From a virus: a stretch of DNA of 64,000 bases. The notes under the pieces were generated by a model. That model ran no database searches. It saw only the letters and a list, made by a program, of their open reading frames with translations, and was not told the DNA's origin. The translations under genes and the position numbers were made by a program. The stretch is taken from IMG/VR virus record IMGVR_UViG_3300005264_000040, positions 64,001 to 128,000 of that record. One strand, written 5' to 3'. Shown here in pieces: positions 5,415 through 63,961 of the stretch (positions within the stretch are counted from its first letter, which is position 1; each line of letters begins with the position of its first letter).

Positions 5415-5858
5415 TTGAAAATCAGGGTAAGATCTAGTAATCCAAACAAATATATTTCTTTAAAAACAATGATTATTGGGAAAGAGTGGGTTGTAGTAGA
5501 TGATTCAAATCCAATTATAAAACGATTGCTAAAAGGTGGTTTTATAGAAACATATAGCGCATCGAAAAAAAATCAAAAACATTTAGAAGAAAAAGTAAAA
5601 AGTAATGTATCAATGAAAAATAAAGGTTTTATATATTTTGCTAAAGATAAAAAGAAAATGAAATACGGCGAAGTTTTAGATTCAGAAAAATTGCCAAATA
5701 GTCAAGAAGAAATAAAAATGTTTATTGATAGAGGTGTTTTAGTAGAAGTTTCTGAAAAGACGGAAGAAAAACCAAAAAAAGAAGAAAAAACAGAAGAGGT
5801 TGTTGAAGAAAAAACTCAAGAAAAGAAAATAAAGAAAAATTCAAAAAAGAAGCAATGA
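5415..5858 (+). CDS. Hypothetical virion-associated protein
   Basis: SD AGGGGG; two similar short domains plus K/E-rich tail. Confidence 0.6.
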   Translation: MKIRVRSSNPNKYISLKTMIIGKEWVVVDDSNPIIKRLLKGGFIETYSASKKNQKHLEEKVKSNVSMKNKGFIYFAKDKKKMKYGEVLDSEKLPNSQEEIKMFIDRGVLVEVSEKTEEKPKKEEKTEEVVEEKTQEKKIKKNSKKKQ

Positions 5859-11434: not shown

Positions 11435-11457
11435 AAAAGACCCTTCAAGGGTCTTTT
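11435..11457. terminator. Bidirectional intrinsic terminator
   Basis: AAAAGACCCT-TCA-AGGGTCTTTT between convergent genes. Confidence 0.8.
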
Positions 11458-11684
11458 TTTAATAGTTCTATATAATCTTTTTTATAATGATGAGGTAATG
11501 CATATAAAACTTGTAAAAAACTTATTGTTTCTTTAGTTAAAATAAAATTTTTGAAGGTGTCTAATAGCAAAGGATCGTAATATATCGCTCTATATTTCAT
11601 AAGTTCTGTAATAGTTAGTTTTACTTTTAAACAAAAAAAATCATAATTTGAAATATCATTATGGACAGCGTAATACCGCATCAA
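11445..11684 (-). CDS. Out-of-frame C-terminal part of the HD-GYP domain
   Basis: ITELMKYRAIYYDPLLLDTF matches the HD-GYP terminal EL..G.QFDP.VV.AF motif; overlaps the end of 11659..12834 in the +1 frame. Confidence 0.6.
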   Translation of the reverse strand: MMRYYAVHNDISNYDFFCLKVKLTITELMKYRAIYYDPLLLDTFKNFILTKETISFLQVLYALPHHYKKDYIELLKKDP

Positions 11685-12834
11685 AACTATCTATTATACG
11701 TAAAATTCTTGCAAGATATATAATATTAGTTCCTTTCAAACCCATAGGATATCCTTTCCCATTAAAATCTTCGTGATGCTGTAAAATTATATTTTTCATA
11801 TTTGGATCTTTAAAAAGAGAATTGGCAATTTGAGCTCCAATTATTGGATGCCTTAATATTTTTTGTTTTTGTTCTGGCGTTAAAGGGTCTTCGGGATCTA
11901 CTTCAAAAACTTCAGGGATAAATATCAATCCAATATCGTGATATAATGCGCTTTTGGTTAAAAGTTCTATTTGTTGTTCGCCCAAATCTAGGAAGTAGCC
12001 AAACTTTTCTGCAATGTTTTGGACTTTTACTGAATGATAAGGGTTGTTTTTTATAATTTGCTCAAGATTAGTAATTGCAACTTCAATAATATGTTCATGT
12101 ACATGAGAATCTCTTTCTAGAAAACTTTTGATTTCATAATAAAGTATTAGCATTTTAGATACATATTCTAAAGATTCTTTTTCTAGAAAAGTTAGAGAAG
12201 TAGTTTTTGGATATGTTGCTATTAGCATAACATGTTTTAATGATGTTTTCAACAACACTTTTGCATATACTTTATAATTAAGAAAATTATCTAAAATTAA
12301 ATTCAAAGTTTGTTTCATTCTATAAGGAAGCTTTGAAAAAAAAGCAAGACTTCCATAAGCCACATTATTAGGAAGGGTTAAATGGTTTCCAGCTATTAGA
12401 TTTTTGTCAAAAAAATGTTTAAATTCTTCGTTCGAAGAATATATACAAACCCAACGTTCATCTTTTGCATGGCGTTTCTTCTGTTTTTCAATTATCGAAA
12501 TATTAGTCAAAGTTGGCACTAAAATTTTCAATCCTTGAACTGTGCCTGCTATATAAGAAACATGATCTTTTGTTCCTTCAAGTTTTATAATTGAATTAAG
12601 CAGAGTTTTGAACCCATTTATAAATTTTATATCTTCGTTTCTGTTTTTCAATATAGTTTGTTCTGTGCTACTTAAAATAGCATTCTTTTCATTTATGCAT
12701 TTTTCATATTGTGTTTTTAAATTACTAATTTCAAGTTGCAAATCATGCCTTTTTTTTGAAGCTGTTATAGCGTGTATAATTATAAGTATCATTATAATCA
12801 TAATTAAACCAAAGAAAACATACATACGGGCCAC
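11659..12834 (-). CDS. Membrane-anchored GAF-like + HD-GYP cyclic-nucleotide phosphodiesterase (C-terminus frame-broken; likely start ATG 12825)
   Basis: N-terminal TM helix, coiled coil, HSVKV, YHDIG, RHP, QHHE..GKGYP.GLKG, IIDSFDA. Confidence 0.85.
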   Translation of the reverse strand: MARMYVFFGLIMIIMILIIIHAITASKKRHDLQLEISNLKTQYEKCINEKNAILSSTEQTILKNRNEDIKFINGFKTLLNSIIKLEGTKDHVSYIAGTVQGLKILVPTLTNISIIEKQKKRHAKDERWVCIYSSNEEFKHFFDKNLIAGNHLTLPNNVAYGSLAFFSKLPYRMKQTLNLILDNFLNYKVYAKVLLKTSLKHVMLIATYPKTTSLTFLEKESLEYVSKMLILYYEIKSFLERDSHVHEHIIEVAITNLEQIIKNNPYHSVKVQNIAEKFGYFLDLGEQQIELLTKSALYHDIGLIFIPEVFEVDPEDPLTPEQKQKILRHPIIGAQIANSLFKDPNMKNIILQHHEDFNGKGYPMGLKGTNIIYLARILRIIDSFDAVLRCP

Positions 12835-22142: not shown

Positions 22143-25100
22143 CTATTTGATTAATTGCTCAAATTGCCATTTGTCTAATATATTTATGGTTTTTATTTTG
22201 TTTTCCTTCAAATCGCGATAATCATTTAGCACTATTGTTTTTTGAACATCATATATATCTAAAGAACCTTCTGCATTCATTACATTTTTTATTCCATTTT
22301 TACTATAATAGTTTCGTATCCAAAATCTATCTTTTAATTCTTGATAGATTTCAAAGTATTCATCTAAAAAATAAAATGCACTATCTTTAGGTAATACTTT
22401 TATATGTGGCAAATTATATATAGGTTTTCCGCTTATATTAACAACTAGCTTTAAATCTATCAAAATAGCTTTGCAAATTTCTACTTCTATTTTTCTAAAA
22501 GACTGAACAAATAAAAACTGAATCCCTCCACAATTTTCCAATTTGACAGGGGGACAACTATCTTCTGTCGCGTATTGAGATACGAATATATCTGTATAAA
22601 TAGGAGGACAATTGTCTTCTGTTGCATGCTGTAGTACATACACATCAAAGTTTATAGAAGGATGTACGTATTGCATTAAATCAGCGAATTCTATATCAAT
22701 AGGAGGACAATTATCTTCTGTTGCATGCTGAATTAAATTAGCAAACTCAATGCTAATCGGAGGACAGTTTTCTTCTGTTGCATATTGCATCAAATCTGAA
22801 AATGTAAAACGCACAGGTTCTTTTGTATTGAATACTGAATATTGCGATATTCGAATATCCATATCAATAGGAGGACAACTATCTTCGTCTTGTGTTGCAT
22901 ATTGCAATAAATTCAAAGTAAGATATTTTGAAACATCAGTATAAGGCATTTTATAATCTTTATTTGTATATTCTAAAACAGTGCATTTAATTGTATTTTT
23001 AGGTTTAATTTCGAAAGGAGTTTTTTCAATATCTACATATTGAGTTAAATTAGCAAACTCTATATCAATAGGGGGACAACTGTCTTCGTCTTCTGTTGCG
23101 TATTGCATTAAATCAGCAAACTCTATATCAATAGGAGGACAACTATCTTCGTCTTGTGTTGCATATTGCATTAAATCAGCAAACTCTATATCAATAGGAG
23201 GGCAACTGTCTTCGTCTTCTGTCGCGTATTGCGTTAAATTAGCGAATTCAATATCAATAGGAGGACAACTGTCTTCATCTTCTGTTGCATATTGAGTTAA
23301 ATCAGCGAATTCAATATCAATAGGAGGACAACTGTCTTCATCTTCTGTTGCATATTGTAATAGAGTAACAGGTTTAACATCAATAGGGGGGCAACTATCC
23401 TCATCTTGTGTTGCGTATTGCATTAGATTTGCAAACTCTATATCAATAGGAGGACAGCTATCTTCGTCTTGTGTTGCATATTGTAATAGAGTAACAGGTT
23501 TAACATCAATAGGGGGGCAACTATCCTCATCTTGTGTTGCGTATTGCATTAGATTTGCAAAAGTTATAAATTTAGAAACATCAGTATAGGGCATATGATA
23601 ATCTTTATTTGTATATTCTATTATGACACATTTAATTGAATTGTGGGGCCTTTTATCTAAAGGTGTCTTTTCTTCATCTATATATTGAATAAGATCTGCC
23701 AAGTCTATTTTGTGACTTTCTTTTTTATGATAAATTTTACGTTCCCACTGACACTCGATTGATGCATGAGGTCTTTTGTCTAAAGGTGTTTTCTCTTCAT
23801 CTATATATTGCATCAAATCTGGAAATTCTATTTTCTTTTCTTTTTTTATATGATAAATAATAGGTTCATAAACACATTCAATTGGAATACCAGGCCTTGT
23901 TACTTTATGAAGAACAGTCTGATAAAGATCAAACATATATATAGAACGGTTTGTATCTTCTCCATAACTCGCAACAACAAAAGAAGGGCCTGCTTGGTTT
24001 GTATATCTTTTTGTGAAAACACTTAAATATTTCGCATTTATTATATTTAAATCATAAAATAAATGTATCGGATACACTATATCTGGATATCCGTAGAAAA
24101 TATTCGTTTCATCATGATGATCGGGAATTTTTATTATATAAACTCTTTCATCTATTGTACTATTAGCTATAATAAAATATCCATATATATCAACTGTATA
24201 ATAGCTAAAATCAAAGTTTTCTATATCAGGTATTTTTGTTTGTAAAATGTCTGATATATATCCTACGTGATAAAAAAACTTTTCTAATCCTCCATTATTA
24301 TCTATTGAAAATTTAATTTGTTTAGTGTGTAAGGTATATATGGAATGGGTAGAACTAGGATATTTTGCATAATAAGTTAATCTTCCAAGATAAGAGTTAA
24401 AACGAACAGGATTGCTGGTATTAAACATCCCATTCAAACTTTCTCTTATACCTTGCCCATCTTTAGGATATAAAAGATAATATTGAAAGTTATGATCTTC
24501 TACATTATATTTCATGTTTGCAATTTCTATAAAATAGTAATCCGGAATATCTATTGGAGTTGTGCTACCATTATAATTTTCCTTGATTAAAACAAGGTTT
24601 TGAACACCGCCTGTCCATATAAACCATTGATATGGTTTTGCTTTTGATTGCAAAACCATAACAGGTAAATAAAGAGGTTCGTTTCTATATTCTACATTAT
24701 TAGTAATATCTTTTATATAAACAGTATAAAAATCATCATTTGCAGTATATTGAACATATGTACTGTAGCCTATTACGCCTTGAGATATATCAAAAGCGGA
24801 AGAATCAGGAAGATCTGCATATTGTATATTTTGATTTACCAAATCCAAAAGAAGAATTTTATTTTGACTTCTACTTAAAACCATTACATAACCATTAAAA
24901 GGCCAAATATCATTTCTATCATCTAACCACGTATCGTCTGGAGTAACAAAAAGAGAACCTTCGCCTATTGGATCCACGCCTCTTCTTCCATATTTTATAA
25001 TAGCATTAGTTGGTTCCATAGCAGTCATTATCCACCAGTCTTCCAACAAATAAGTTCTATGCAATCTGAAAGGTACTAAATTACTAGCATTTGGATCATT

Positions 25101-27653: not shown

Positions 27654-27677
27654 AATTCGGGATATACATCCCGAATT
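27654..27677 (-). terminator. Intrinsic terminator after RNAP gene
   Basis: AATTCGGGAT-loop-ATCCCGAATT followed by a U-run on the minus strand. Confidence 0.8.
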
Positions 27678-30600
27678 AGTACTTTCCTTTTTCGCCTTTC
27701 CCAAAAGTAACACCTCTTGCCCATTGAGCTATTGGTGAATAACTATGTTTCTTTGTTTTTGCACCTGTCATAGCTGAATGAGGAACAGTTTGTCTTAAAT
27801 ACCTAAAACTCATTCTATGTTCAAAATCATCTGCAATTGTAGGTTGTTTTGCTGAACCTAGTAATAAATTCTTGTATTTTATCTTATCGTTATAAACAGT
27901 AACTTTTTTTATACCTGCTTTTTCTAATTCTTCTTTTATATCTTCATCTATTAAAGTTCCTTTTGAAATATGAGCTGTGTCATCATATAATCTATGTCCT
28001 ATTGCATCTTTTAAAGGGACTGTCATAGAAGAATCTCTATTTAAAGAATCGATATAATTCCAATTTACGACATCTCCTGTTTTTAATTTATGTTCATAAG
28101 GTCCTGGATCCACTACTACAGCTTTATCAGTAACAGATCTTACAATAGTTTCCGTTACTTGAGGATTCATCTTTTTATCTATTTGGTTATATACAATATC
28201 ATTTAATTCATTGAGCATTGCTTTTTGTGCTTCAGGCACACCTCTTAATCTTGCTAATTGTTTGTGAGGCAAAATACCATGGGACAGTTTGTCTCCTTTT
28301 TTTACAAATTGTCCTTCCTTCACAACTAATCCTAAACGTTTAGGGATTTTGTGTATTTTATCTTTGATTTTCACTTCATAAACTGAAGATTTTTCTACAA
28401 TTTTTTCAACTTTTCCACTACGTTCTGCAAGTTTTGCAAAATTAGGATTACTTTCAGGCATTCTTAATAATGTAGAAACTTGTGTAAATACATCCCCTAT
28501 ATTTTCATTTCCTGCTCCTACTACACTACCGGAATGAAACAATGACATAGAGGTTTGAGCTAAAGGTTCTGTTACAGCTTGTCCTGATTTTATCCCTATA
28601 TTTTCTCCTATTTCAGGTAATTTATAACTTTCATCAATACCAAAAGATTTAGCCGCTATTCCTTCAGGTAATGTTGATGTTAAAGGGGATTTTATGTATA
28701 TAGACGTTATTCCGCTTTGTTTTAAATCTTTAATCATTTCAGCGGTTACTTCTTCGCCTTTTTTATATTCTGTTTTCTTACCTTTTATATTTTGAGCTAA
28801 AAACCTTCCTATATATTTTTCATCTACATTTACTTTTAAACCTGGATCTTTGTCATCATCTTTATCAGCAACAACTAAGGTCATTAAAGATTCTAATAAT
28901 TCTTTGTTCAAAGCTCCAGGTTCAGAAACCATAGATTTTCTTGCAATCATACCAGAACGAGCACCATACCCTACACTTAAATATTCAGCAGGAGTTAAAC
29001 CTTCTGCGAAACTTCTTTTTACTACAATTGGTGCAGGTTTTCCTTTTGCGTCCTGAACTAATAAAGGAGTAGCTGCAATTTGCCTTATTTGTCCAATACT
29101 TCCTTTTGCTCCTGACATCGACATGTTGTATAATCCATTCTCCTTATATTTTTTAGAACGTTTATCTTCAAGGGATTTATCTAATTTCTTTTGTAAATCC
29201 ATAGCTTTTTCTATTTTTTGTTTATAAGGAAGTTGATTTATTTTATCCACTTCTTCTTTGATTTTTTTGACATCATCATCTTCTTCTTTAATATCATCAA
29301 TACCTACACTTAATCCAATTCTTGTAATTGCGAATCTTCCTACATCTTTCCAAGTTGAGAATATTCTATTTATCTCTTCTCCTAATAAACGCCCTTTGGA
29401 TTTTTCAATAGCTAATTCATTAGCTAATTGTTGAATCATTTTTTTGTTCCATGTAGAATTTTTATTTGGTTCTATATATTTTCTGTAGAATTCTCTTTTA
29501 AGATTTTCATCTTGGATAGTTAATAAAACATCCATAATCAAATGCCTTCCTGCAGTTGCACTATACCTGTATCTCGGATCTACTCCTAATATTTCCACTG
29601 TATCATTCCATTTTATTTGGTTATTTAAAAATCTATCATACAATTCATCATAACTTTTTACCATTATTTTTCTTCCTGGTTTTTCTGGTGGTTCTGTCAC
29701 TCTAAATATTCCATTTAAATATTCCATTGAAGGCAAATGCATTATTTGTTTTGTTCCAGGTTTTAAAAGATTATTAGAAGGCAACATTTTAAATGCTTCT
29801 TTTCTTGCTTCTTCAGTAACCGGAACATGAATTCCCATCGTATCACCATCAAAATCAGCATTAAAGCCTTTTACAACCAATGGATTAAGTTGAACAGCTT
29901 TCCCTTCTATAAGTCTTGGCTTAAAAGATAATATAGAAAATTTGTGTAATGAAGGCGCTCTATTTAACATTATAGGACGTTTTTTCATTTCTTCTTGTAC
30001 AATATCCCAAACCATATCATTAGGATCTTTCAATAATTCAGTAATTCTTTTATTGTCATATCCCATTTTTTTGAGTTCTTTCTTTATAAATGGTTTGTAA
30101 AGATTCAAAGCAACGGGTTTAGGAATACCAGCTTCATCTAATTCTAAATCAGCACCCGGTTCTATTAATCCTGTTCCTGAAAGTTCTTGCCTTTTCTTCA
30201 CTACTTTTGACTGAAAATATCCAGATTTAGGAGATTTACCTGGAGCACCTGCCACATAATGTAGAGCTCCGGCTGGTTCTTCTTGTTTGCTGTTTTTCAT
30301 AGGAGGATTACTTCCAACAACAGCTCCTACAGCTTCCAATAATTTTTGTCTATATTTTGCTGCACGTTTAGGGGATAAATTATCTTTCATTTCTTTGAAA
30401 CGTTGGTTTAAATTAATCAAATCTTGATATACATAATTTATTTGAGAAACTCTTACATCTGATTTATCGGTGGGAGAAGGATACACCGGCCTAAATTTTG
30501 GTGGGATTACTGGGATTTTAGAAATAACTAAATCTTCAGGTTTTAATTTATTTTCCTTCAACATTTTTAACATTTGCACTTTTCTTAAAGCTTTGTCAAG

Positions 30601-32097
30601 AGTTCTTTGTTCATTACTATTTTTCAAATGTTCTTCTGCTTTTTTTAATTCTTCATCCACATTTATTTTTGACAATAAATATTTAACAGCTTCGCCTCCG
30701 CCAATTGCTTTATCTTTTGGAGATACTTTATTTACATCTACTAATTTACCATCTTTTAAGACCATTTTACCTTCCATGATTTTTCTTAAATCTTTTTGTT
30801 TTAAATCTAATAATTCAGCTATTTGTTTTTCGAATAAAGGATTTACAATAGGTTCTGCTAATTCTATTTTCCCCCATTTATCTCCTTTAAGGCCACCTAA
30901 TTTATGCGGGTCAAACAATCCACCTTTTTCTGGTAAAAGGTTGTGGCCTGCTAAAATTTTAGCGTTTTCTACTTCACCTGCGGCTAAATTATCTACATCT
31001 TTATCGGTAATAGGTCTATATTTAATCTCCTCTTTGTTTTCTTCTGAATAAATACCAGCACCAGTTAAATAGGCTCTAAATTTTTCATATGCAAAAGGAG
31101 TTTTCATGGTTGAAGGAGGGGGTACTTCCCCGTTCTCAATGGCCCTCCAGAATTCATCATTTTTCTCAGCTTTATAGGTGGCCATTTCACGCAGGTTTTC
31201 CCTTGCGTTGTGCGCTACCATCCCGTAGAATGTTAGCGCATCTAAAGAACGAGCACCCCCACCAGCACCAGTTCCTTTTAAAGGTTGTAAATCTGAATCG
31301 TAAGCCCAATATTCGCCTCTTGTATTAGTTTTCTTATCTACTTGTTGAGGAAGTTTTATAAAATATTGATATCCCACCAAAGCCGGTGTTTCCATTTCAC
31401 CTTCTCCAGGAATATATATTTTTTCCTTATCTTTAATATTATATTTTTTCATTAATTGTTTTGTATATTCTGTCATATCCTTTTCCGTATCAAACAAAGG
31501 CACTTTAATAGGATGTCCAGCTTTAACTGCAGCTTTCCCAGCTACAGTCTCTAATATCTGCGATGGATTGATACGTGAAGGCAACGAAAGAGGATTTAAA
31601 AGGACATCGATAGGTTTCCCTTTTTCATCTTTAGGCATTTCGTCATCAGGTAATATTAAAGATACAGTACCTTTATTCCCGTGTCTTCCGGTCAATTTAT
31701 CTCCAACTTGCATTGGAGATTCATATTTTACCATAACACGAATTTTATCTCCTAATCTATATACTTTTACTACTTCTCCTATTTCTTTATGTTTCCATAC
31801 GATACTTTTATCTACATAATCTCTTAAAACTTTATCTGCAAAAGCACCTAATATTTTATCATTTTCTGAAGGTACTCTTTCTCTCAAAACTACTGCAATA
31901 GGATCCCCATTTTCAAGTTTAATTCCTTTTTTTGCAATACCTTCATTATCTAATTTTTCTAGTTGGTTTGCACTATATTTAGTTGGATAATATGCTTGAT
32001 ATTTCTTTTTATCAAGAATAGTTTCTGGTGTAATTTCGATATCGTATTCTACCAAGTGTTCAGAAGTCATTTTTTTTGCTGCAGTTTCTGAAAGCAC
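27676..32097 (-). CDS. rpoBC: Phage two-barrel RNA polymerase: beta C-terminal third fused to beta'
   Basis: GDKLTGRHGNKG, NPLSLPSRIN, PVIPPKFRP, LNRAPSLH, catalytic NADFDGD, GAKGS, bridge helix EGLTPAEY..GYGARSG, trigger loop EPLAQTSMSLFH; annotated GTG start has no SD. Confidence 0.95.
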   Translation of the reverse strand: MLSETAAKKMTSEHLVEYDIEITPETILDKKKYQAYYPTKYSANQLEKLDNEGIAKKGIKLENGDPIAVVLRERVPSENDKILGAFADKVLRDYVDKSIVWKHKEIGEVVKVYRLGDKIRVMVKYESPMQVGDKLTGRHGNKGTVSLILPDDEMPKDEKGKPIDVLLNPLSLPSRINPSQILETVAGKAAVKAGHPIKVPLFDTEKDMTEYTKQLMKKYNIKDKEKIYIPGEGEMETPALVGYQYFIKLPQQVDKKTNTRGEYWAYDSDLQPLKGTGAGGGARSLDALTFYGMVAHNARENLREMATYKAEKNDEFWRAIENGEVPPPSTMKTPFAYEKFRAYLTGAGIYSEENKEEIKYRPITDKDVDNLAAGEVENAKILAGHNLLPEKGGLFDPHKLGGLKGDKWGKIELAEPIVNPLFEKQIAELLDLKQKDLRKIMEGKMVLKDGKLVDVNKVSPKDKAIGGGEAVKYLLSKINVDEELKKAEEHLKNSNEQRTLDKALRKVQMLKMLKENKLKPEDLVISKIPVIPPKFRPVYPSPTDKSDVRVSQINYVYQDLINLNQRFKEMKDNLSPKRAAKYRQKLLEAVGAVVGSNPPMKNSKQEEPAGALHYVAGAPGKSPKSGYFQSKVVKKRQELSGTGLIEPGADLELDEAGIPKPVALNLYKPFIKKELKKMGYDNKRITELLKDPNDMVWDIVQEEMKKRPIMLNRAPSLHKFSILSFKPRLIEGKAVQLNPLVVKGFNADFDGDTMGIHVPVTEEARKEAFKMLPSNNLLKPGTKQIMHLPSMEYLNGIFRVTEPPEKPGRKIMVKSYDELYDRFLNNQIKWNDTVEILGVDPRYRYSATAGRHLIMDVLLTIQDENLKREFYRKYIEPNKNSTWNKKMIQQLANELAIEKSKGRLLGEEINRIFSTWKDVGRFAITRIGLSVGIDDIKEEDDDVKKIKEEVDKINQLPYKQKIEKAMDLQKKLDKSLEDKRSKKYKENGLYNMSMSGAKGSIGQIRQIAATPLLVQDAKGKPAPIVVKRSFAEGLTPAEYLSVGYGARSGMIARKSMVSEPGALNKELLESLMTLVVADKDDDKDPGLKVNVDEKYIGRFLAQNIKGKKTEYKKGEEVTAEMIKDLKQSGITSIYIKSPLTSTLPEGIAAKSFGIDESYKLPEIGENIGIKSGQAVTEPLAQTSMSLFHSGSVVGAGNENIGDVFTQVSTLLRMPESNPNFAKLAERSGKVEKIVEKSSVYEVKIKDKIHKIPKRLGLVVKEGQFVKKGDKLSHGILPHKQLARLRGVPEAQKAMLNELNDIVYNQIDKKMNPQVTETIVRSVTDKAVVVDPGPYEHKLKTGDVVNWNYIDSLNRDSSMTVPLKDAIGHRLYDDTAHISKGTLIDEDIKEELEKAGIKKVTVYNDKIKYKNLLLGSAKQPTIADDFEHRMSFRYLRQTVPHSAMTGAKTKKHSYSPIAQWARGVTFGKGEKGKY

Positions 32098-34030
32098 TAT
32101 AGCATGCTGTTTTTAAATTTTTACCTGTTGTAAGCTGATTCTTTTTAGAATAATTACTTTCTGCCAAAACAGTTCCTGGAGATACTTTATCTCCTTTTTT
32201 GATTTTAGGAGTATGTCTAATGAAACTCGTAGGACCCGTTTTCAAATATGAGGCCATATTAAAGGTCTTAATAGTACCGTCTGGCTGTTTTACTTTGATA
32301 GAGTTTTCAGACACGTCAGAGACGACGCCAGACACATCTGAGACGATATTAGTTTCAGTTGCAAGTAATTTTCCTACATCTGTTTTTCCTTTTTGAGTAG
32401 CTTGTACTAAAGGTATCTCAGCATCTTTTAATGGGATAGCTTGTGTCATCTGTTTTGCTGCCATAGCAGCCCTACCTCCCTGCAATGATTGTAAATAAGG
32501 AATTTGCAAGGTGGTTGCATCAAATAATTGATCTACATCTGTAAAAATATGAGTTACATCTTTTCTATTTACAACATCAAGTTTTCCGTGATTTAATGCT
32601 TTTACATCATTTTCTTTTGCTATCCATTTTATGTTTTTCACTTTGCCTTTATCATCTTTTTCTATTTTAGCTTCTCCATATAATGCAATAACATATTTAT
32701 CATAGTCAATTGGTCTTACCAGTTCATAATCTTTCTTCTTAATATTATAAAGTTTAGCTGCCAAATCTTTCCCTTTTCCTTTTTTAACAACTTGAGTTTG
32801 CATAGTTTTATACAATGTTACACCTAACTTATCCGATTCAGGTGTATGAACAGGATCTACAACTCCAAATTGATAATCGTTTAAAGACCTATCCATTGTA
32901 GTAATTTGTTGTTCGTCTTCCAACCCGCCTTCACCTGTTAATATAACTTTATTATTGTGTGCTAAAACAGAGAGAGGGTTATAACCATCCACTACTTGAG
33001 ATAATGATGAAGTTTTAAAAAATTTGAATATTGTGTTTGAAAATGTTTTTTTCAAAAATTCCAAATCTTTTATAGAAGATATAGAATCAACTTTATCTTC
33101 TAACGATTTTTGTATATATTTCATTTGATTTGAAAGTTTTTCTCCTAGTATATCTTCTATTTCAACAACTTTTTTGTATTTAAAATTAGAAGTTTCTGTA
33201 GGTTCTTTTTTACCTCCAGCTAAATCTATTGCAGATTTTATTAAATCTACTATATAATCTAAAGAAACTTTTTCGTGGGGAACATCAATGTTTAATTGAT
33301 TAACTTCAGGATCCATTATAGTTCCATTGAAATAGTCTTTAATTTTATCTACCATATAAGAATGTTCCCTTTTTTCAGGGTCCTTAAATATAATCTTATA
33401 AAAAGTTTCTACTGCTTGCTGAGAAGCTGTATTCAAATCTCCTTTAACATGTTTCAATGCATCATCAACAACATCTTTTCCTAACTTCTTTTTTAAATTT
33501 TCTACGCTATATCCCATACCAATTAAGAATGGGATAGCATCCATTGTTTTTGACATAAATAATTTAATTGTGCCTTTAATTGGATTATAAATTATTTTAA
33601 AATTCAAACCTTTTTCAAGGAAAGCCCTTGCTTCGTATTCGTCTCTTGAAGTTAATTTGAGATAGGATCCAGCTTTAAGTCTTAATTGAGTTGGAACAGA
33701 ATACTGTGTTCCATCTACAATAAAAGTCCCATGAATTCCCATAATAGGAAATTCCATAAGCGTAATCGTATCTTCATCTATTATTTTATTATTCTTTTTT
33801 AATTGTAATTTTGTATTAAGTTTAGCAGTAAGACTTCTATCAGTATTAAAGATTTCTTCAAGTTCTTTATAGTCTTTATAAGCTTCAGCCATATCTATTT
33901 TATAATCAACTAAATCAATAATTTGTGTTTTACCTTTAATAGGGAAAACTTTTTTTAATAATTGTTCTGCAGTTCTGATTAAAGAATTATTGACTCTTTC
34001 AACTGTTTTTTTAAGACTATTTTCAGACAT
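32060..34030 (-). CDS. rpoB: Phage RNA polymerase beta N-terminal two-thirds (last 14 aa out of frame)
   Basis: GTFIVDG, SLSQVVDGYNPLSVLAH, TGEGGL, DPVHTPE, KQMTQAIPL, TGKNL; SD AGAAGGTGG. Confidence 0.93.
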   Translation of the reverse strand: MSENSLKKTVERVNNSLIRTAEQLLKKVFPIKGKTQIIDLVDYKIDMAEAYKDYKELEEIFNTDRSLTAKLNTKLQLKKNNKIIDEDTITLMEFPIMGIHGTFIVDGTQYSVPTQLRLKAGSYLKLTSRDEYEARAFLEKGLNFKIIYNPIKGTIKLFMSKTMDAIPFLIGMGYSVENLKKKLGKDVVDDALKHVKGDLNTASQQAVETFYKIIFKDPEKREHSYMVDKIKDYFNGTIMDPEVNQLNIDVPHEKVSLDYIVDLIKSAIDLAGGKKEPTETSNFKYKKVVEIEDILGEKLSNQMKYIQKSLEDKVDSISSIKDLEFLKKTFSNTIFKFFKTSSLSQVVDGYNPLSVLAHNNKVILTGEGGLEDEQQITTMDRSLNDYQFGVVDPVHTPESDKLGVTLYKTMQTQVVKKGKGKDLAAKLYNIKKKDYELVRPIDYDKYVIALYGEAKIEKDDKGKVKNIKWIAKENDVKALNHGKLDVVNRKDVTHIFTDVDQLFDATTLQIPYLQSLQGGRAAMAAKQMTQAIPLKDAEIPLVQATQKGKTDVGKLLATETNIVSDVSGVVSDVSENSIKVKQPDGTIKTFNMASYLKTGPTSFIRHTPKIKKGDKVSPGTVLAESNYSKKNQLTTGKNLKTACYSAFRNCSKKNDF

Positions 34031-45934: not shown

Positions 45935-47200
45935 TTATACTATAACTAAATTAAGATTTAAATTTATCACAGTAGGTCTCTGAGGGTCCTGCAATAAATT
46001 AAAACTTTGTATTGTACCTGTCAAAAACGAATCAGTTTCTGTTTTGGAATAATTCTTAAAAAATTCTTTTTCAAAAAAATAAGAACTTCTCAATGAAATA
46101 GTTGCGCCTGTTCTCATTATACCATTTAAAATACTTTCAAAAATGTTATATACTGCAAACGGGTTCTCATCTATTTTTAATTCTTCTACCAAATCAGCTA
46201 CATCAAACATAACATTTATATTCATAGAAGTGGTAGAAATATCATAATAAAACAAGGATATAGTTCTTACATATTCACGTAATGCACTTGAAGGATTTAA
46301 CGAAATACTTAAATTTGTCAAAATCCCAGGTAATATATATTTATGTTTTTCAGATAAATTTAAAATCAACTTTACTTCTGTTTCCTCTTCAGAATTCAAA
46401 TAATCCAAAAATGCATTATTCCATCTCATCTCTTGGATATCGCCTTTTATTTTTGTTATTATTTTTTCATCAGTTTGATGATGTAATACAGGAGTGTATA
46501 GTCTAAATTTACCTTTCGGATCTACTATAGGATCTTTTAATATATTAGTAGTAGGCATTTTACTTTCTTGTATGTAATCATACCATGCAGTTCTTTCTTT
46601 ATCTAAAGTATATCTATCAATAGAAGATAATAGAATGCCGGTCAAACCTCCTGTTATTGCTGGTGTATTTGCATCCCACATATAAGAAAACCCTACAGGA
46701 GCAAATAAATAAACTCCATTTTGTGAAGCGATGTAAGTTATATAATTGCCAGCAAAAAAACCAGTCCAAATATGTTTATAGAACCAATCCAAAAACGCAA
46801 AAGCATTTCTTAATTGTCTTTGTAAAATTTGTGCAGTTTCAGAAGCATACGGATTTGTATTTTGAATATTTAAAGCATAGTCTTTATCATGCACAGCAGG
46901 AAACATAAATCCCAAATTTATTCGTGGAAAACTTGGTGTAGAATATACAGGCTGTGCTTGTTTTAAAGTATATAAAGTTTGCATTCTTGAGTTTTGATTT
47001 ATTGTCAAAGAATTCATAAATGCATCTACAAAAAGAGGTTCTCTGACTATTTTAGGTTTATCATATCCGGAATCCTCAGTAATTTCTTGATAAACAATTC
47101 CAAACTCTACTTCGCTTACATCGTCATATTCATACCCTGCTTTATTCAATATTTCTTCATAAATTTGGAGTTTCGAAGTTTTATTTGCCATTTTTATCAC
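45935..47200 (-). CDS. Tube-initiator/baseplate protein with tube-like domains
   Basis: FMNSLTINQNSRMQTLYTL..VYS and similar beta-strand repeats; in baseplate cluster. Confidence 0.5.
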   Translation of the reverse strand: MIKMANKTSKLQIYEEILNKAGYEYDDVSEVEFGIVYQEITEDSGYDKPKIVREPLFVDAFMNSLTINQNSRMQTLYTLKQAQPVYSTPSFPRINLGFMFPAVHDKDYALNIQNTNPYASETAQILQRQLRNAFAFLDWFYKHIWTGFFAGNYITYIASQNGVYLFAPVGFSYMWDANTPAITGGLTGILLSSIDRYTLDKERTAWYDYIQESKMPTTNILKDPIVDPKGKFRLYTPVLHHQTDEKIITKIKGDIQEMRWNNAFLDYLNSEEETEVKLILNLSEKHKYILPGILTNLSISLNPSSALREYVRTISLFYYDISTTSMNINVMFDVADLVEELKIDENPFAVYNIFESILNGIMRTGATISLRSSYFFEKEFFKNYSKTETDSFLTGTIQSFNLLQDPQRPTVINLNLNLVIV

Positions 47201-47931
47201 CTATCAATTTTTATTTTGTCCAATTGCATTTTAGAAATCTTTGTAATTTGACTTTCAGCATTAAGATAATCTTGTAATATTTTTGTTGATTTGTTTTTGA
47301 TTTGAGAAACTCTTGCATTTGATATTTTGTATTTTTTACTAATCTCGTTTCCAGATTTTCCTTGAAGAATATCATTAAAAATTGGGATATGTTCTTGAGG
47401 AAGTTTTTGTTTGGCATAGTCAATAGCATTTTTATATTTTAAACTTGTGTCATCTTCGACTGGATCGAAACTAGTATAATCAACACTTACACCTGGCTTT
47501 AACATTTGCTGCATTTTATTCACCTTCGAAACTGGCCATTTTAATTCGTCAGCTAGTTGTTGTGGTGTTGGGTTTATTCCACCGTTTCTTGATTTGAGTT
47601 TTTCTCTTACTGACAAAAATGTACCTGCTTCCAATTTATAATTTTCTGGAAGCCTTACAGCTGTTTGATTATCATTTACAAATCTATATAATTTGTTTAA
47701 ATAACTTGACACTACAGCTTGTACAGGTACTCCTCTATTAGGATTATACACCTTTAATGCTTGTATAATCAATCTATCCGCTTCAGCTTCTATTACTGAA
47801 GGAGATACTCCACTTCCATAATATTTCTTTATGGCATTGACTTTTTGTCCTTCTAAATCATCAAGGATTTCATCTAATAACATTGGATCTTTTGTTTGTT
47901 GCCATTTAACTACTTTTTCTTTAAGTGTCAT
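47197..47931 (-). CDS. Phage sigma70-family factor
   Basis: Region 2 (QALKVYNPNRG), VRLP, region 3 (PTPQQLADELKWP), region 4 HTH (SGNEISKKYKISNARVSQI). Confidence 0.85.
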   Translation of the reverse strand: MTLKEKVVKWQQTKDPMLLDEILDDLEGQKVNAIKKYYGSGVSPSVIEAEADRLIIQALKVYNPNRGVPVQAVVSSYLNKLYRFVNDNQTAVRLPENYKLEAGTFLSVREKLKSRNGGINPTPQQLADELKWPVSKVNKMQQMLKPGVSVDYTSFDPVEDDTSLKYKNAIDYAKQKLPQEHIPIFNDILQGKSGNEISKKYKISNARVSQIKNKSTKILQDYLNAESQITKISKMQLDKIKIDR

Positions 47932-51651: not shown

Positions 51652-53572
51652 TGCAACCAGGACTTCTTGGCGGCCTTACTTCCGGATTAGATTTTATTTG
51701 CTGGGGATTCTGAGGCTGTTGCGGTTGTTGTGGTTGTTGTGGTTGTTGCCCCCCACTTGTATATTGCTGTAATGCGGCAATTACATCATCTGTTAAATAA
51801 GGCATAATTTGGTCTAAGAAACCTTGGTTAGATTGATCTAATTGTTGTAATTGGCTCAATATTTGTTGTAAATGAGCTGGAGGTTGTGGGCCTCCAGCCT
51901 GTTCGGGTGGTTGTTGAGGTGGTTGCACTTCTGCTGCATTTGGCAAACCATTAATAAGTAATTCTTTTATCTCAAGAGGTGTATAGGTTTTATCTAGTGA
52001 TATAGAAGGTGTAGCCTCAAATGCTTGAGCATTTGTTTGAGCTTCTTCTACAACCTTCTGTGCTCTATATTGTGATAAAGATTGTGTTTCTGCCATTGTT
52101 AATTCTTCCTGTTTTATGTTATTCATTTCTTCTTCGTAATCTAATCCAAAGTTTTCTAACAATGTCTTTCCAGAAACTAATTTCATCTGATTTAAATTCA
52201 TCAATGATTGTTTAAACTGAACGTCATCTGCCATTTTAAATGGTGCAAAATCCACTTTTACTCGTGGTAATTTATGATAATTTGCAATATATTTTACTAT
52301 TTTTCTTAAAACTTCTTTTATTCTATTTCTGTAGTTTATGTATTGATTTTCTAACATTCTCATTGAAACAGAACTTCCACTCCAGGTTAAACCCCCATAA
52401 ACAAATTCTCTTGGAACTCCCATCCCAGCTATAACTTCTTCAGCTAATTGTTGGATTTCAGGTTGCAAAAGATACATTTTACCGTCTCCTGCAAGTTTCC
52501 CTTGACCTACTGGAATAGGGAAAATTCCTACATAAGAAGGGTCTAATTCATATCTTTTTAATTGCATCCTAATTTTGCTTTCTAATTTTTGAAGATTCAT
52601 ATTATTCATATAAGGTGAAGTTGGATCCACGTTTTGTGGAAATAAATAATTCCTTGGAATTACCTGATTAAAAGCAATGTATTCATTAGCTCTTCTTAAC
52701 ATTTGCATATAAAACAAAGTTTTCATTACAGGAGTTATTGCTGGTAATCCCCACCCATTCATATAGTCAGAAGCTGTTCTAGTCTCTTTTATATGAATGA
52801 TTTCGTTAAATTCTACTGCAGGATACCCTTTTAATACTGCGTCTATAAAAGGTTTTGGTGTTGTATAAAGGTACCAGGGTTTTGTTAAAATATTATGTCT
52901 TAAAGAATTTTTTATAAAATACAAATATCGATAAGAATCTGAAGTTTCATTATGTTCTATCATCATATTATTAGGTTGCCATGAAATTATCCTTAATTTC
53001 CCATCTCTTTTTATTTCATCTTTTGATTTCAATGGTTGCATTTTACCGCATTTGTCACAATATCCGTATATTTTGTGATTTCTAATATACCAATTGGGTT
53101 TTGATTTATCTGAACCTGTATTATAAATTGTCTCATTTGTAGAATTAGTATTATCTTTTTTTAATGTAATTTCATGGTCACATACACTACATTTATATGT
53201 TCTTGTAAATGGAGGTAATACAGTTAAAAATACATTTCCATACACTTTTAAATCAATCCCGATTTTTATTAAAGTGTGTTTTATATTCATCTGTTCAAAT
53301 ATATCTTCATATGCTTCTTTTATCTTTTCATCAGTAGTATCAAGTTCTATTGTAGTAATAGGATATTCTGCTGATTTTGATATTATAGCATGTACTAACG
53401 GATTTGTTTCGTAAAAATATTCTGACCATGAAAACAATTCTTTTATATTTTTAGGAAAAAACAAACTTGAAACATCAAAGAAAGGAGAAATAGGTGCATA
53501 CCAAAATAAACTAGCAGCAGTTCCTGTTTTCCTTGTTTCCTTTCTCATTTCTGGATTATTAGTTATACCCAT
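51632..53572 (-). CDS. Portal protein with Zn-ribbon insertion and Q/P-rich tail
   Basis: NPLVHAIISKSAEYP, GWGLPAITP, IAGMGVPREFVYGG...SGSSVSMRMLEN; CSVC...CDKC. Confidence 0.85.
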   Translation of the reverse strand: MGITNNPEMRKETRKTGTAASLFWYAPISPFFDVSSLFFPKNIKELFSWSEYFYETNPLVHAIISKSAEYPITTIELDTTDEKIKEAYEDIFEQMNIKHTLIKIGIDLKVYGNVFLTVLPPFTRTYKCSVCDHEITLKKDNTNSTNETIYNTGSDKSKPNWYIRNHKIYGYCDKCGKMQPLKSKDEIKRDGKLRIISWQPNNMMIEHNETSDSYRYLYFIKNSLRHNILTKPWYLYTTPKPFIDAVLKGYPAVEFNEIIHIKETRTASDYMNGWGLPAITPVMKTLFYMQMLRRANEYIAFNQVIPRNYLFPQNVDPTSPYMNNMNLQKLESKIRMQLKRYELDPSYVGIFPIPVGQGKLAGDGKMYLLQPEIQQLAEEVIAGMGVPREFVYGGLTWSGSSVSMRMLENQYINYRNRIKEVLRKIVKYIANYHKLPRVKVDFAPFKMADDVQFKQSLMNLNQMKLVSGKTLLENFGLDYEEEMNNIKQEELTMAETQSLSQYRAQKVVEEAQTNAQAFEATPSISLDKTYTPLEIKELLINGLPNAAEVQPPQQPPEQAGGPQPPAHLQQILSQLQQLDQSNQGFLDQIMPYLTDDVIAALQQYTSGGQQPQQPQQPQQPQNPQQIKSNPEVRPPRSPGCNGMDTF

Positions 53573-53585
53573 ATTTACACCCCTT

Positions 53586-54272
53586 TTAAATGAAATCAGG
53601 TAATTCTTCAGCTTTTACAAAATGTTTGGTAGCCATATTAACATTTAATATTTTTTGTATTTGAACATTTAAAACTGCATCTTCTTTTCCTAAAATAGAA
53701 GGTAAATCTTTTTTATCTAAAGTTGGTATAATTCGTTCCAATGCTTTAAAACGTTTCTTATTTTGATTGTCTAAGTTTTTATACAGTTTTTCTTTTGCGA
53801 ATTCCAGATATGTTGGAGGATATAAAAAACCTCTTTCTAATAAAACACCTACTACAAAATCTATTACTTTTTCTTTTTTTACTTTATTATGAATAGTAGG
53901 AAATTCTTTCTTAAAAATACTTTCTGCACAAGTAAGTTCTAAAACTTGAGGTGGTATTATAACACCTTCCTCTGGACCTATGCCATCTATAATCACACTT
54001 ACAACTTTATAATAAGCATACCAATTACCTAATATTAATTCCGGTTTTTTCAAAAAAGTTCTATAAGCGTTTATTTTTTCAAAATTTGAAGGATGTACTT
54101 TACTAGGCAATTTTGATGCAAGTATTTTTATTACTCCTATATCATCTTCTTTTGACCAAGTATATTTTGTATTTATATGAGTTCTAATTGCCTGTTGAAT
54201 ACTATTTATTACAACTGCAGGATGATATGTATTTACATCCGTTAATTTATCCAACTCAACTATTTTGCTCAT
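53586..54272 (-). CDS. Hypothetical protein
   Basis: Long ORF in operon upstream of portal. Confidence 0.6.
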   Translation of the reverse strand: MSKIVELDKLTDVNTYHPAVVINSIQQAIRTHINTKYTWSKEDDIGVIKILASKLPSKVHPSNFEKINAYRTFLKKPELILGNWYAYYKVVSVIIDGIGPEEGVIIPPQVLELTCAESIFKKEFPTIHNKVKKEKVIDFVVGVLLERGFLYPPTYLEFAKEKLYKNLDNQNKKRFKALERIIPTLDKKDLPSILGKEDAVLNVQIQKILNVNMATKHFVKAEELPDFI

Positions 54273-55143
54273 TGTTTTTCATCTCCTCGTACAATTCACT
54301 TATATCTTTCTTCGTATGTTCAAACCATTGCAATTCATCTATATCTTTCGTGTCATTTATATTATAACCCATTAACTCCACCGAAACGTTTAAATTTCCG
54401 TTAAATTTAAGTAACGGAGTATTATTAATATATAATGTTCCTAGTAAATCTTTGGCCATCATTTCTTTGATTAATTCCTTATCATAACCAATCAAAACAA
54501 TTGGATCATCTTTTTCTACCTTATATTGTACATCGTTAAGTTCAAATGAATAGATTGTATCTTCGTCTATGTCTTTTGCGTATATTCGCATTATGTCTAG
54601 GACCTTGTTGTATTGCAATAATTCTTTTGGATATACAAAACTCCACAATATAGCTTTTTTTGCAAGTGTGCTTTTTACTGTACCTTTTACAAATATACTT
54701 GCAAATCTGCTTCTTATTTTTGCTTCTATCGGCATTATGTGTAGAGAATATTGTAATACTCTTCTTAAATATACACTGATGCTTCTTTTAATTATCCTGC
54801 ATTCATGTATATCGAATGGTATTTCGTTGCTTATTTTTATTTGTTTCATTATAACTAATGCGATATATTTGGATGTCTTGTAGTATTGTACAAAATCTAA
54901 ATCAATCGGTATATCTTCTTCTAGTTTTGTATATTGCATAAAAATATTCATAGGTCGTGAAATGAAAATATTTTGTTTTAAATAACCATTGTAAAAGAGC
55001 CAATCTTCACTATGATCTTTTGACATGTTTTCTATTTGTTTTTGGGTCTTTAAATTAATATGTTGAATATGGCAAAGCATTTCTTTCTTTTTGCATTGTT
55101 TTTGAATATTTATTCCATTGTAAATTAGAACTATATAATACAA
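54256..55143 (-). CDS. Carrier of the shared fibre C-terminal module; probably the +1-frame continuation of 55055..57718
   Basis: PIVLIGYDKELIKEMMAKDLLG...NINDTKDIDE; QY/QH periodicity continues; TTG start lacks SD. Confidence 0.6.
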   Translation of the reverse strand: MYYIVLIYNGINIQKQCKKKEMLCHIQHINLKTQKQIENMSKDHSEDWLFYNGYLKQNIFISRPMNIFMQYTKLEEDIPIDLDFVQYYKTSKYIALVIMKQIKISNEIPFDIHECRIIKRSISVYLRRVLQYSLHIMPIEAKIRSRFASIFVKGTVKSTLAKKAILWSFVYPKELLQYNKVLDIMRIYAKDIDEDTIYSFELNDVQYKVEKDDPIVLIGYDKELIKEMMAKDLLGTLYINNTPLLKFNGNLNVSVELMGYNINDTKDIDELQWFEHTKKDISELYEEMKNNEQNS

Positions 55144-57718
55144 GTTGTTGTATCCAATATTGCCACATTTCTATGTAAATTCTTCTAATATGACTACTCC
55201 ATTGCGAAACTTTAATATCAAACCACTTTTGAATTCTCCAAAATTGTAATACATCTATTTCTATTTCTTTGGCGTAAATCGAATACTGCAGCATATTAAC
55301 ATAAAACAATAAATTGTACTTGCTTTCTTGTTGGACTTTTGTATCTATATAATATTTTAATTTTGTATATTGTAATGCGTATATATCTAAATCATAAGGT
55401 AAATTTGTATGTTGCAACATATATCCATATACCCGATATTGAATAAATTGATGTTGTATCAATAATAATTCTATAGGGTTTTGTAAAATTGTATGTTGTA
55501 GCATTTCAATATTCATTTCTTCTTTATATTTTGAATAAACAATGGCGGTTCCTGGTGTCAGAATTTCTACTGTACTGCTTTGTAATACCATTGCATCAAT
55601 CGTTATTTTTTTATGAGAACTCTGTAAAAGGTCTGATTTTACATCTGCTAAGTGCATTCCTATCTGCAATACGATATTTGCTACATTTAATTCTAATATT
55701 GTATATTGACTGATATTTATATCTAATTCTTCTTCTTTTTTTCTTTGGATTTTATTATATGCTTCTATTTGCTTTGATAACTCTGTTTCGTCCATTACAG
55801 AATTTTCTATAATCCTCTTTATAGTAATACCTCTATGGTACATTAATGATTTGAATTCTAAAAATAATTTAGTAACTGCTAAAATTTCCGTTTCAAATAT
55901 TGCCTTAGTTAATGAAAATTGAAGTGTTTTGTTATCTAAACTCTCGTACAAATTTGAATATTGTAGTATTTCTTCTGTTATTATTGCTTTTTCTTCTACA
56001 CTATGTTGGAAAACATAACATCCTATTTCAATTTTATTCTTAGCGTACTGAAGAATTTCATTTTTTATATCCTCAAAAAACACACTATATTGTAGGTTAT
56101 TCGTATTTAAAACTTTGTTTATAAAAGTATGTTGATACATTTCAGCGTATATTCTTCTTTTATCTTTTTTCCATAATATTAATCTCACTATACCAAAAAT
56201 TCTAAATAAAATTTTATACTGATATTCTTGCGCTATTACTTTAGCCTGCTTCTTACTTGTTTGTAAAATTGAATTATCTAATAGAAGGAACAAAACATTA
56301 CGTTGCAAATTATAAGTTTCAATATTTTGCGATAAAATATGATATTGTGAATTAGAACAAAAAATGCTTGTATTCCAATTTATATTTGCTATTTTATTTT
56401 GAGCATTAATAAATTGTCTAATATTATCTACTTCTAAAACATGAGCACTAATATCTTTTTTTTCGCGTAATTTGCTTATATATATTCTAGAAAACAGTTG
56501 ATTATATATTTCATTATAGCTTTTGATTTCAGAATATAATTCAAATTCAAATGAATAAGTTTGTGCATTATATATTTCAATTTCTAAAGTTTTTAAAGAA
56601 TTTGACAAATTTATAGTATATAGCCATCTAACTAAACCTCTCCCATTATAGGAATGAGCAGTTATTTCTTTTTGCTCTTTATTTTTAAACTGTAATTTTA
56701 ATGTTATCGGAGAGATTTTTTTTCTAACATGCAAAGTTTTGTTTTCTATATCTTTTTCTTGAGTTGAGAAATACGTTATTAAACTTTTTAAAGCAAAATT
56801 TATTCTATAATAGTATTCTATAAAAGTTCCAATATATTTATTTATTTCAGTTTCGCTTGTTACATGTGCAGTTATCTCATTTTGTTTATAAAAATATTGA
56901 AAAATACTTCCCCTTATATTTTGAAAGGAGTTTTGTATTAAGGTATTATATATATAAATGTTTCGTGCTTTCGTATTTATTAATAAGGAGTAATTTTGTA
57001 TTTTGTTTTCTTTATAAAGTTCATGTTTTGTATATAAATTTAAAAATAATTGCAAGTTAGAATCCGAAATCAAAGTTGTTTGTAAAAATCTGCATTTTCT
57101 TAATTTGGTATATTCAAAACTTTCAATAGTATTAATATCTAAAGCAATATTACTATTTTTCGAATACAAGGTATTAAAAATTGTGGATATTAATTGCAAA
57201 TGCAAAGGCATAACTTTCACTTTTGGAAAATCATGTCTTTTCATTTTTATATCTAAACCTTTTCTTCTACTGGAAATAATACTATTATAACTTTTAACAA
57301 ATCTTCCCCATTTCACTCCTGTAATATTTAAATCAGAAGTTATTTCTATATTTTCTTTCGACCTCAAAGCATATATACTATCAAAATGTTTTGAAATTAA
57401 AATAGTTTGTTGTTCGAACGGCCTTATATAAGAAATAATAGGTAATCCTACTACTCTAAATACATGATGAAAAAATTGATATTTCCTGTACCATTTTAAA
57501 ATATCTTCACAGTAGGGAGTATTACCATAATAGTAATAATAAAACACAAAATGAAAATAAAACACAACCCATGTATGATCATATCCTCTATATGGGTTTA
57601 TTGTGATGCACTTTTTACAGTGCTTTTTCTTTTTCTTATCTACACATTTATTGTAATCCTCTATCGTCTCACAAATAATAACATCCGTATTCGTACCAGG
57701 ACAACAACTTTTAGGCAT
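55055..57718 (-). CDS. Fibre-shaft-like pseudo-repeat protein with Cys/aromatic-rich N-terminus
   Basis: SD GGAGGG; ~14-aa periodic (L/M/V)Q(Y/H/F/W/S) pattern. Confidence 0.65.
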   Translation of the reverse strand: MPKSCCPGTNTDVIICETIEDYNKCVDKKKKKHCKKCITINPYRGYDHTWVVFYFHFVFYYYYYGNTPYCEDILKWYRKYQFFHHVFRVVGLPIISYIRPFEQQTILISKHFDSIYALRSKENIEITSDLNITGVKWGRFVKSYNSIISSRRKGLDIKMKRHDFPKVKVMPLHLQLISTIFNTLYSKNSNIALDINTIESFEYTKLRKCRFLQTTLISDSNLQLFLNLYTKHELYKENKIQNYSLLINTKARNIYIYNTLIQNSFQNIRGSIFQYFYKQNEITAHVTSETEINKYIGTFIEYYYRINFALKSLITYFSTQEKDIENKTLHVRKKISPITLKLQFKNKEQKEITAHSYNGRGLVRWLYTINLSNSLKTLEIEIYNAQTYSFEFELYSEIKSYNEIYNQLFSRIYISKLREKKDISAHVLEVDNIRQFINAQNKIANINWNTSIFCSNSQYHILSQNIETYNLQRNVLFLLLDNSILQTSKKQAKVIAQEYQYKILFRIFGIVRLILWKKDKRRIYAEMYQHTFINKVLNTNNLQYSVFFEDIKNEILQYAKNKIEIGCYVFQHSVEEKAIITEEILQYSNLYESLDNKTLQFSLTKAIFETEILAVTKLFLEFKSLMYHRGITIKRIIENSVMDETELSKQIEAYNKIQRKKEEELDINISQYTILELNVANIVLQIGMHLADVKSDLLQSSHKKITIDAMVLQSSTVEILTPGTAIVYSKYKEEMNIEMLQHTILQNPIELLLIQHQFIQYRVYGYMLQHTNLPYDLDIYALQYTKLKYYIDTKVQQESKYNLLFYVNMLQYSIYAKEIEIDVLQFWRIQKWFDIKVSQWSSHIRRIYIEMWQYWIQQLVLYSSNLQWNKYSKTMQKERNALPYSTY

Positions 57719-57841: not shown

Positions 57842-58110
57842 AGCATAATATGGCATACATATTTTAAGTGTGGTATCTCTGAAATGCACTATTTATAAGG
57901 TTTTGCTGCAATGTGCTTTCTCCGTTTTCTGGAATTTTTGGCTGAATTTCTAAAATCGTCCCATTTCGGAGTGCATTTCAGCACCCAAAAAGTACCTCAA
58001 ACTCACTATTCATAGGGGTGCGTTTGACGTTCAACGGTCCTATTATATATATATAATAGAGTCGTTGCCCGTCATTTGCACCCCTTTGAATATGTACGCC
58101 ATATTATGCT
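57842..58110. repeat. Nested inverted repeats, including an 86-bp imperfect palindrome with (AT)n core
   Basis: 22-bp IR 57842-57863/58089-58110 (1 mismatch); 12-bp perfect IR 57879-57890/57970-57981; gapless palindrome 58007-58092 centred at 58049/58050. Confidence 0.9.
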
Positions 58111-63150: not shown

Positions 63151-63961
63151 TGTTTTTTGATGCTCACAAATTTTGGGAAAAGTTATGTCTTACAACATCC
63201 GAAATATAAAAGATATGACAGAAGAATTATTTGAATTTGGGATTAATGCAAATATTAAAGTTACATTACCTGTATCTTTTTCTTATAATGCCGATACTAA
63301 AGAATATATTGGCATTGAATATGATAATGGAATAATAATTGAAAATGAAGATATTTTTGAAATTACTGAAGTTGATTTGTTTTTAGATGAGGAACTAGTA
63401 CAATCTTTTACAGAAACAACTAAACTTCCAGATAATAAATTCAAGCTCAATTTTGACGTAGAAAGCTTATTTGCTGAAGAAGAAAAAGGGATGAAATATT
63501 TTACTCTATTAGCAACAGGTCTTGTCTTTAATTTTGAAGGAGTAAAATCTTTATATGATGACTTGGATTATGTAGGTGCTAAAATATTACAAATACATAA
63601 TTTTGCTTCGATAGAAGAAGTAAGAAATGCACATCCTTTAAAAAGAGAAGATATAGCGTATAGACTTGCAACTGCAGCATTTGTGTTAAAAACAGGAATG
63701 TATTTTAAAAACAATTATTTAAATCTTTTGAGTATAATAAAAGGGATGCCTTATGCGCCAATAGGCGGAAAAATACTTGGTTATAAATATAACTCTTTAT
63801 ATGGATATACAGGAGTACAAATAGAAAGCAGAAATAATAAAAAATATTGGTTCTGGTTTTCGGGTGATTTCAGAAATAATTTATGGTATAATATTGATGA
63901 TGAAATAGAGAGGGGAGACCCACTTACTAATTTAATTGATATTGAAATTGTGAGGAGTTGA
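63147..63961 (+). CDS. Baseplate wedge protein; SD-supported start at 63147 is one frame off from track ORF 63173..63961
   Basis: AGGAGG-N6-ATG overlapping the upstream stop gives MMFFDAHKFWEK; the -1 frame continues VMSYNIRNIKDMTEELF. Confidence 0.6.

Follow-up and report, generated by a model that had tools for sequence, protein, structure and literature searches.

RNA polymerases (RNAPs) in which the beta and beta′ subunits are fused into a single protein are known from large uncultured phages, the cultured relatives of which are Vibrio phages D69, D181, and D148 and Salmonella phage Arash. These polymerases have the domain order PF04565, PF00562, PF04997, PF00623, PF05000, and PF04998, and a family feature is a continuous open reading frame (ORF) of about 2000-2100 amino acid residues, or longer if inteins are present. 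Arash virions contain both beta and beta′ in abundance (PMC10585845). The Arash subunits differ from the fused enzymes in that each has a gene of its own in the annotation (Gp206 and Gp216). Here I analyzed an RNAP gene with the same domain order in a 64,000-nt stretch of phage DNA (referred to as the window), which corresponds to bases 64001-128000 of the linear IMG/VR record IMGVR_UViG_3300005264_000040 (177,768 nt in total; estimated completeness, 83%). The G+C content of the window is about 30%, and tblastn searches gave about 30% identity to phages of 180-187 kb, the nearest cultured ones being the four phages named above. The window copy departs from the fused phage RNAPs in that it is split into two ORFs and is missing the active-site loop of the beta part, while a copy of the same gene in an ENA scaffold is continuous and has the loop. 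As described below, the gap is most likely an artefact of the assembly behind the IMG/VR record and not a feature of the phage, which most likely encodes a single 2128-residue beta-beta′ polymerase in which the active-site loop, YLAYKGMNFED, is intact.

The intact polymerase gene in other assemblies

In the window, the place of one continuous ORF is taken by two ORFs of 656 and 1473 codons, which overlap on the minus strand and meet at the sequence AGCATGCT (32108-32101). Together they are a fused beta-beta′ RNAP broken inside beta. The PF00562 (Rpb2_6) match of the 1473-aa product (P0002) is over the cut-off (E=3.9e-45, 162 bits) but covers only positions 100-357 of the profile. The Rpb1 domains 1, 2, 4, and 5 follow downstream of Rpb2_6 in the same ORF, and the catalytic motif of beta′, NADFDGD, is intact (as GFNADFDGDT). 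At the junction, the minus strand reads GGT AAA AAT TTA AAA ACA GCA (GKNLKTA), then one surplus T, and then GCT ATA GTG CTT TCA GAA (AIVLSE) in the next frame. The GTG that opens the 1473-aa ORF has no purine-rich, Shine-Dalgarno-like run upstream. The active-site loop, which has the form x-x-P-x-x-G-x-N-[FY]-E-D and precedes [GA]-I-V-x-S-E, is absent from the window copy. The original prediction, which was made from the letters of the window, had read the two frames, the palindrome, and the poorly equipped GTG in the same manner, and it had reconstructed a loss of 32 nt covering an 11-residue segment of the active centre.

It was found that the two window ORFs belong to a 90%-identity protein cluster with a third member, P0124, which has 2128 residues and comes from ENA and Logan. 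This is the exact length of the mended protein (642 + 11 + 2 + 1473 residues), and the first 642 residues of the 656-aa ORF product are identical to P0124. P0124 is coded on the ENA scaffold DOMB18-1_SAMN06288063_METAG-scaffold_15 (184,070 nt). Over 26.4 kb, the scaffold and the window are 100.000% identical except for 32 additional bases at the RNAP junction of the scaffold. Thus, exactly 32 nt are missing from the window, corresponding to positions 11928-11959 of the ENA locus L005, or to 11926-11957 given the ambiguity of the dinucleotide AT. In the intact allele, the missing bases specify YLAYKGMNFED, with TAT and GAT as the flanking codons. The inverted ends AGCAT and ATGCT lie at L005 11923-11927 and 11958-11962, and AT forms a microhomology of 2 nt. 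The loss of 32 nt, the flanking codons, the inverted ends, and the AT microhomology had been proposed in advance, and they agree with the ENA scaffold base for base.

A Logan contig also encodes the exact 2128-aa RNAP, as seen at the protein level (the run and the DNA of this contig were not seen). The Logan contigs of run SRR6301447 equal the ENA scaffold in all parts that were read, and one of them, SRR6301447_29622, is identical to ENA over the 145-nt site in the DNA polymerase (PolA) gene described below. Both sites that can be checked in Logan, those of the RNAP and the DNA polymerase, are intact there. The 11 codons are hence present in other assemblies, which is what the original prediction had named as the mark of an artefact; this agreement holds at the level of assemblies (ENA scaffold DNA and Logan protein) and not of raw reads. 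In contrast, the broken RNAP products on record come from JGI/IMG only, so the deposited assembly already contained the gap, which did not arise at a later stage. An exact 26-nt pattern of the flanks was found on no further contig in the viral_contigs and metagenome_contigs collections, and no DNA match to the phage turned up in the phage collection.

Conservation of the missing loop

Is the loop dispensable in related polymerases, or is the gene naturally split in some of them? At three related IMG/VR loci, the RNAP gene is a continuous ORF of 2139-2489 aa, which reads Y[VM]P[YF]xG[FL]NYED-GIVIS at the site. Of the best 120 homologues among 5.8 billion proteins, nearly all consist of a single fused chain of about 1850-2580 aa, the exception being a 1190-aa entry on a 4.3-kb contig. 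None of these 120 starts or ends at the site, although no separate search was made for shorter or longer proteins. I aligned 120 proteins (118 database homologues and two proteins translated from related loci) with residues 601-720 of the intact protein. The 11-residue segment is ungapped in all of them, and every one is continuous across the site. The final D is invariant, and it is preceded by E or D in 119. YLAYKGMNFED also aligns, column for column, with the loops of solved bacterial beta subunits, FMTWEGYNYED (8i23_C) and FMPWEGHNYED (8dy7_C), except that LA in the phage takes the place of the MP of most sequences. The segment is the loop at the catalytic centre that contains E813 and D814 in Escherichia coli beta. 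The assignment of the lost residues to the active site thus stood up, and from the sequence a polymerase that is frameshifted and has lost this loop should be inactive.

These results bear on the idea that the window shows a natural or programmed state, in which the polymerase is conserved as a split enzyme or a separately stored segment restores the gene conditionally. The gap fits the 11 codons exactly, and nothing else speaks for this idea. Homologues that natively lack the segment, or that share the split, were not found among the aligned proteins, and other assemblies of the same phage carry the whole gene. Moreover, a search for the loop motif in six frames and a blastn-short search with the 32-nt piece detected no other copy in the entire 177.8-kb record. 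Since there is no donor copy, a stored or excised segment, which had been among the suggestions of the original prediction, is not supported. I consider a natural or programmed state to be practically negligible as an explanation. Programmed recoding, either by frameshifting or by bypass, was also considered and rejected; the 11 conserved residues are encoded nowhere in the record, so no frameshift could restore them and no complete product is possible from the record.

As a separate observation, relatives of this RNAP (L004 2066-9535 and many homologues) have large insertions directly after NADFDGD in the beta′ part. The insertions match the intein and homing-endonuclease families PF14890, PF14528, PF05204, and PF03161, and the proteins reach 2400-2580 aa.

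Nine deletions in the record

The comparison was extended to positions 42450-127398 of the ENA scaffold (84,949 nt in six loci), which correspond to 84,339 nt of the record. Over these 84.9 kb, the record differs from ENA by no substitution, no insertion, and nine deletions of 17-145 nt, which sum to 610 nt (Table 1). The ENA scaffold is intact at all of the sites. The deletions are indifferent to the importance of the genes that they hit, and the number of lengths divisible by three (three of nine) matches chance. Because nine similar deletions are spread over 85 kb, there is no sign that the RNAP motif was targeted.

Table 1. Parts of the RNAP gene and deletions in the IMG/VR record relative to the ENA scaffold (positions are those of the window unless stated otherwise)
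Feature	Position	Strand	Remarks
RNAP N-terminal part, 656-aa ORF	32060..34030	minus	PF04565 (RNA_pol_Rpb2_3); the final 14 residues are an out-of-frame tail
RNAP remainder (beta C-terminal part and beta′), 1473-aa ORF (P0002)	27676..32097	minus	GTG start; PF00562, PF04997, PF00623, PF05000, PF04998
Deletion junction AGCATGCT (palindrome)	32101..32108	minus	The lost 32 nt belong at 32105/32104 (AT ambiguity)
145-nt deletion	4.7 kb before the window (G000 ~59267)		Inside the 2011-aa primase-helicase-exonuclease-PolA gene
86-nt deletion	5611..5613		Removes the end of one gene (90 aa) and the start of another (85 aa)
17-nt deletion	11670..11671	minus	Frameshift in the HD/HD-GYP gene: 465 aa (ENA) to a 391-aa ORF
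32-nt deletion	32104	minus	RNAP loop
30-nt deletion	51655..51657	minus	Stop codon of a 653-aa gene and the ribosome-binding site of the next gene lost
36-nt deletion	51838..51846	minus	In frame in the 653-aa gene; 7-nt microhomology; beside a CAA-rich low-complexity stretch
113-nt deletion	55090..55092	minus	1191-aa structural gene to ORFs of 887 and 295 aa
126-nt deletion	58088..58093		Intergenic
25-nt deletion	63164..63166	plus	Start of a 279-aa gene; 262-aa ORF in the record

The same cause lies behind three further breaks that might be read as biological. The HD-GYP gene (window 11445-12834) is an intact 465-aa ORF in ENA (L006 4883-6280). A one-base insertion had been a candidate for its frameshift and was ruled out, since the record lacks 17 nt that the ENA scaffold has. 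The overlapping ORFs of 887 and 295 aa (window 54256-57718) are one 1191-aa gene in ENA (L007 2446-6021). Their overlap is not a +1 frameshift either, given the 113-nt deletion. The break within the proofreading domain of the PolA gene is the 145-nt deletion; both ENA (L009 3861-9896) and the Logan contig SRR6301447_29622 encode one 2011-aa protein.

It was assessed whether the deletions could belong to a real but defective genome. According to this explanation, a sub-population of the phage would carry many short deletions flanked by microhomology, including a knockout of the RNAP, the IMG assembly would have followed that haplotype, and the haplotype would persist with the aid of co-infecting intact helpers, or else as dead-end DNA. 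The junctions are indeed exact, their microhomology is mildly over chance, and the record contains no runs of N; graph assemblers, in addition, normally report only junctions that are supported by reads. However, such a haplotype would have collected nine deletions and not a single substitution in 85 kb. Its RNAP, its DNA polymerase, and structural genes would all be knocked out, which means that it could not replicate autonomously. The ENA and Logan assemblies are intact at both sites that Logan allows to be checked, the broken products appear in no other source, and the flank appears on no other contig. I therefore regard a defective genome as unlikely. A still lower probability goes to the stronger claim that the record is the faithful consensus of a defective-interfering-like genome, which has neither RNA nor DNA polymerase of its own, is abundant enough in an environmental sample to be assembled, and depends on an otherwise identical intact helper.

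Two side observations concern other genes of the window. Among the structural genes downstream of the polymerase, there is a 244-aa protein with a faint match to Sigma70_r3 (window 47197-47931; ENA L007 12412-13146), which is the same in both assemblies. Inside a 1110-aa gene, the region 23036-23561 contains internal repeats of about 400 nt with 83-87% identity at an offset of about 126 nt, which were noticed as secondary blastn matches.

Features of the junction

The palindrome and the repeats around the lost 32 nt had led the original prediction to favour a molecular mechanism specific to the site, either hairpin-assisted slippage between AGCAT and ATGCT or microhomology repair after a cut, for example by CRISPR. 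A cut by a homing nuclease was considered along with these. The 5-nt inverted repeat and the AT microhomology do flank the lost piece, and inteins and homing endonucleases occur in the same gene of relatives. However, a microhomology of at least 2 nt was obtained at 22% of random junctions in the DNA of the window, and an 8-nt palindrome arose across 4.5% of random 32-nt deletion junctions in the same DNA. The DNA of the intact allele folds no more stably than shuffled sequences on either strand (z of 0.77 and 0.54). Since the palindrome, the microhomology, and the hairpin are all within chance, no special mechanism is called for, and the slippage model is not supported. Furthermore, the record has eight other deletions at unrelated places.

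As for a CRISPR cut, the exact 22-nt core of the lost piece was searched in 185,579 species genomes and matched one unrelated locus and no CRISPR array, although this search does not cover partial or mismatched spacers or uncollected hosts. With no array match and with the site being one of nine deletions, repair of a CRISPR cut is not supported. Overall, a site-specific event at the RNAP motif seems very improbable. What remains of the original prediction is the reconstruction of the lost segment, together with a chimera or a defective genome, which it had listed as alternatives and which fit best; the molecular mechanisms that it favoured do not.

The unrelated 22-nt match lies in three near-identical contigs of metagenome-assembled genomes (MAGs), at L011 3484-3505, L012 591-612, and L013 4552-4573. 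These MAGs are labelled as Thermoflexus hugenholtzii and two Betaproteobacteria, and the three contigs have at least 262 nt nearly identical in common. The shared stretch suggests that the contig is mis-binned or a contaminant in at least one of the MAGs.

Origin of the deletions

As the gene is intact in other assemblies and the record shows a series of deletions only, a defect in the data is the most likely cause. The IMG/VR record would be a faulty consensus that lost short stretches at no fewer than nine places, and one of these losses would by coincidence have taken the 11 codons of the loop minus one base, splitting the gene into the two ORFs. The leading guess is that a scaffolding or merging step joined contig ends that had a small gap between them or an overlap of wrongly estimated size, although which step was at fault is inferred. 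Some scaffolders trim contigs and join them without checking the overlap when the estimated gap is zero or negative. Trim-and-join scaffolding of this kind would yield exactly the deletion-only pattern. Known mis-joins of assembly and scaffolding resemble the present case in that they produce many short deletions and no substitutions, irrespective of the reading frame or of how important a gene is. They resemble it also in the location of some edges. The end of one Logan contig of run SRR6301447 and the edge of the 126-nt deletion lie 3 nt apart, the single such case seen, and the 36-nt and 30-nt deletions border a 183-nt island next to the CAA-rich low-complexity stretch. The contig end and the low-complexity flank suggest places where assembly graphs break.

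Several points weigh against faulty assembly. A de Bruijn assembler alone cannot create a junction with an overlap of 0-7 nt; thus, either a joining or merging step or reads that bear the deletions must be assumed. The junction ambiguity averages 0.89 nt for random deletions of the same size, while the observed mean is 1.9 nt for all nine deletions and 2.1 nt for the eight that were tested (P=0.011). This modest excess of microhomology, which is carried by one 7-nt and one 4-nt junction, is not accounted for by mis-joins and also fits a molecular process. Finally, the comparison was made at the level of assemblies, and the reads behind the IMG record may differ from those behind ENA and Logan.

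Meaning for the phage and its record

The record has lost nine or more short stretches within 85 kb. Any apparent frameshift, split gene, or missing motif on it should therefore be compared with the ENA scaffold DOMB18-1_SAMN06288063_METAG-scaffold_15 before a biological meaning is attached to it. If the deletions are real, the record would represent a defective phage genome from the environment.

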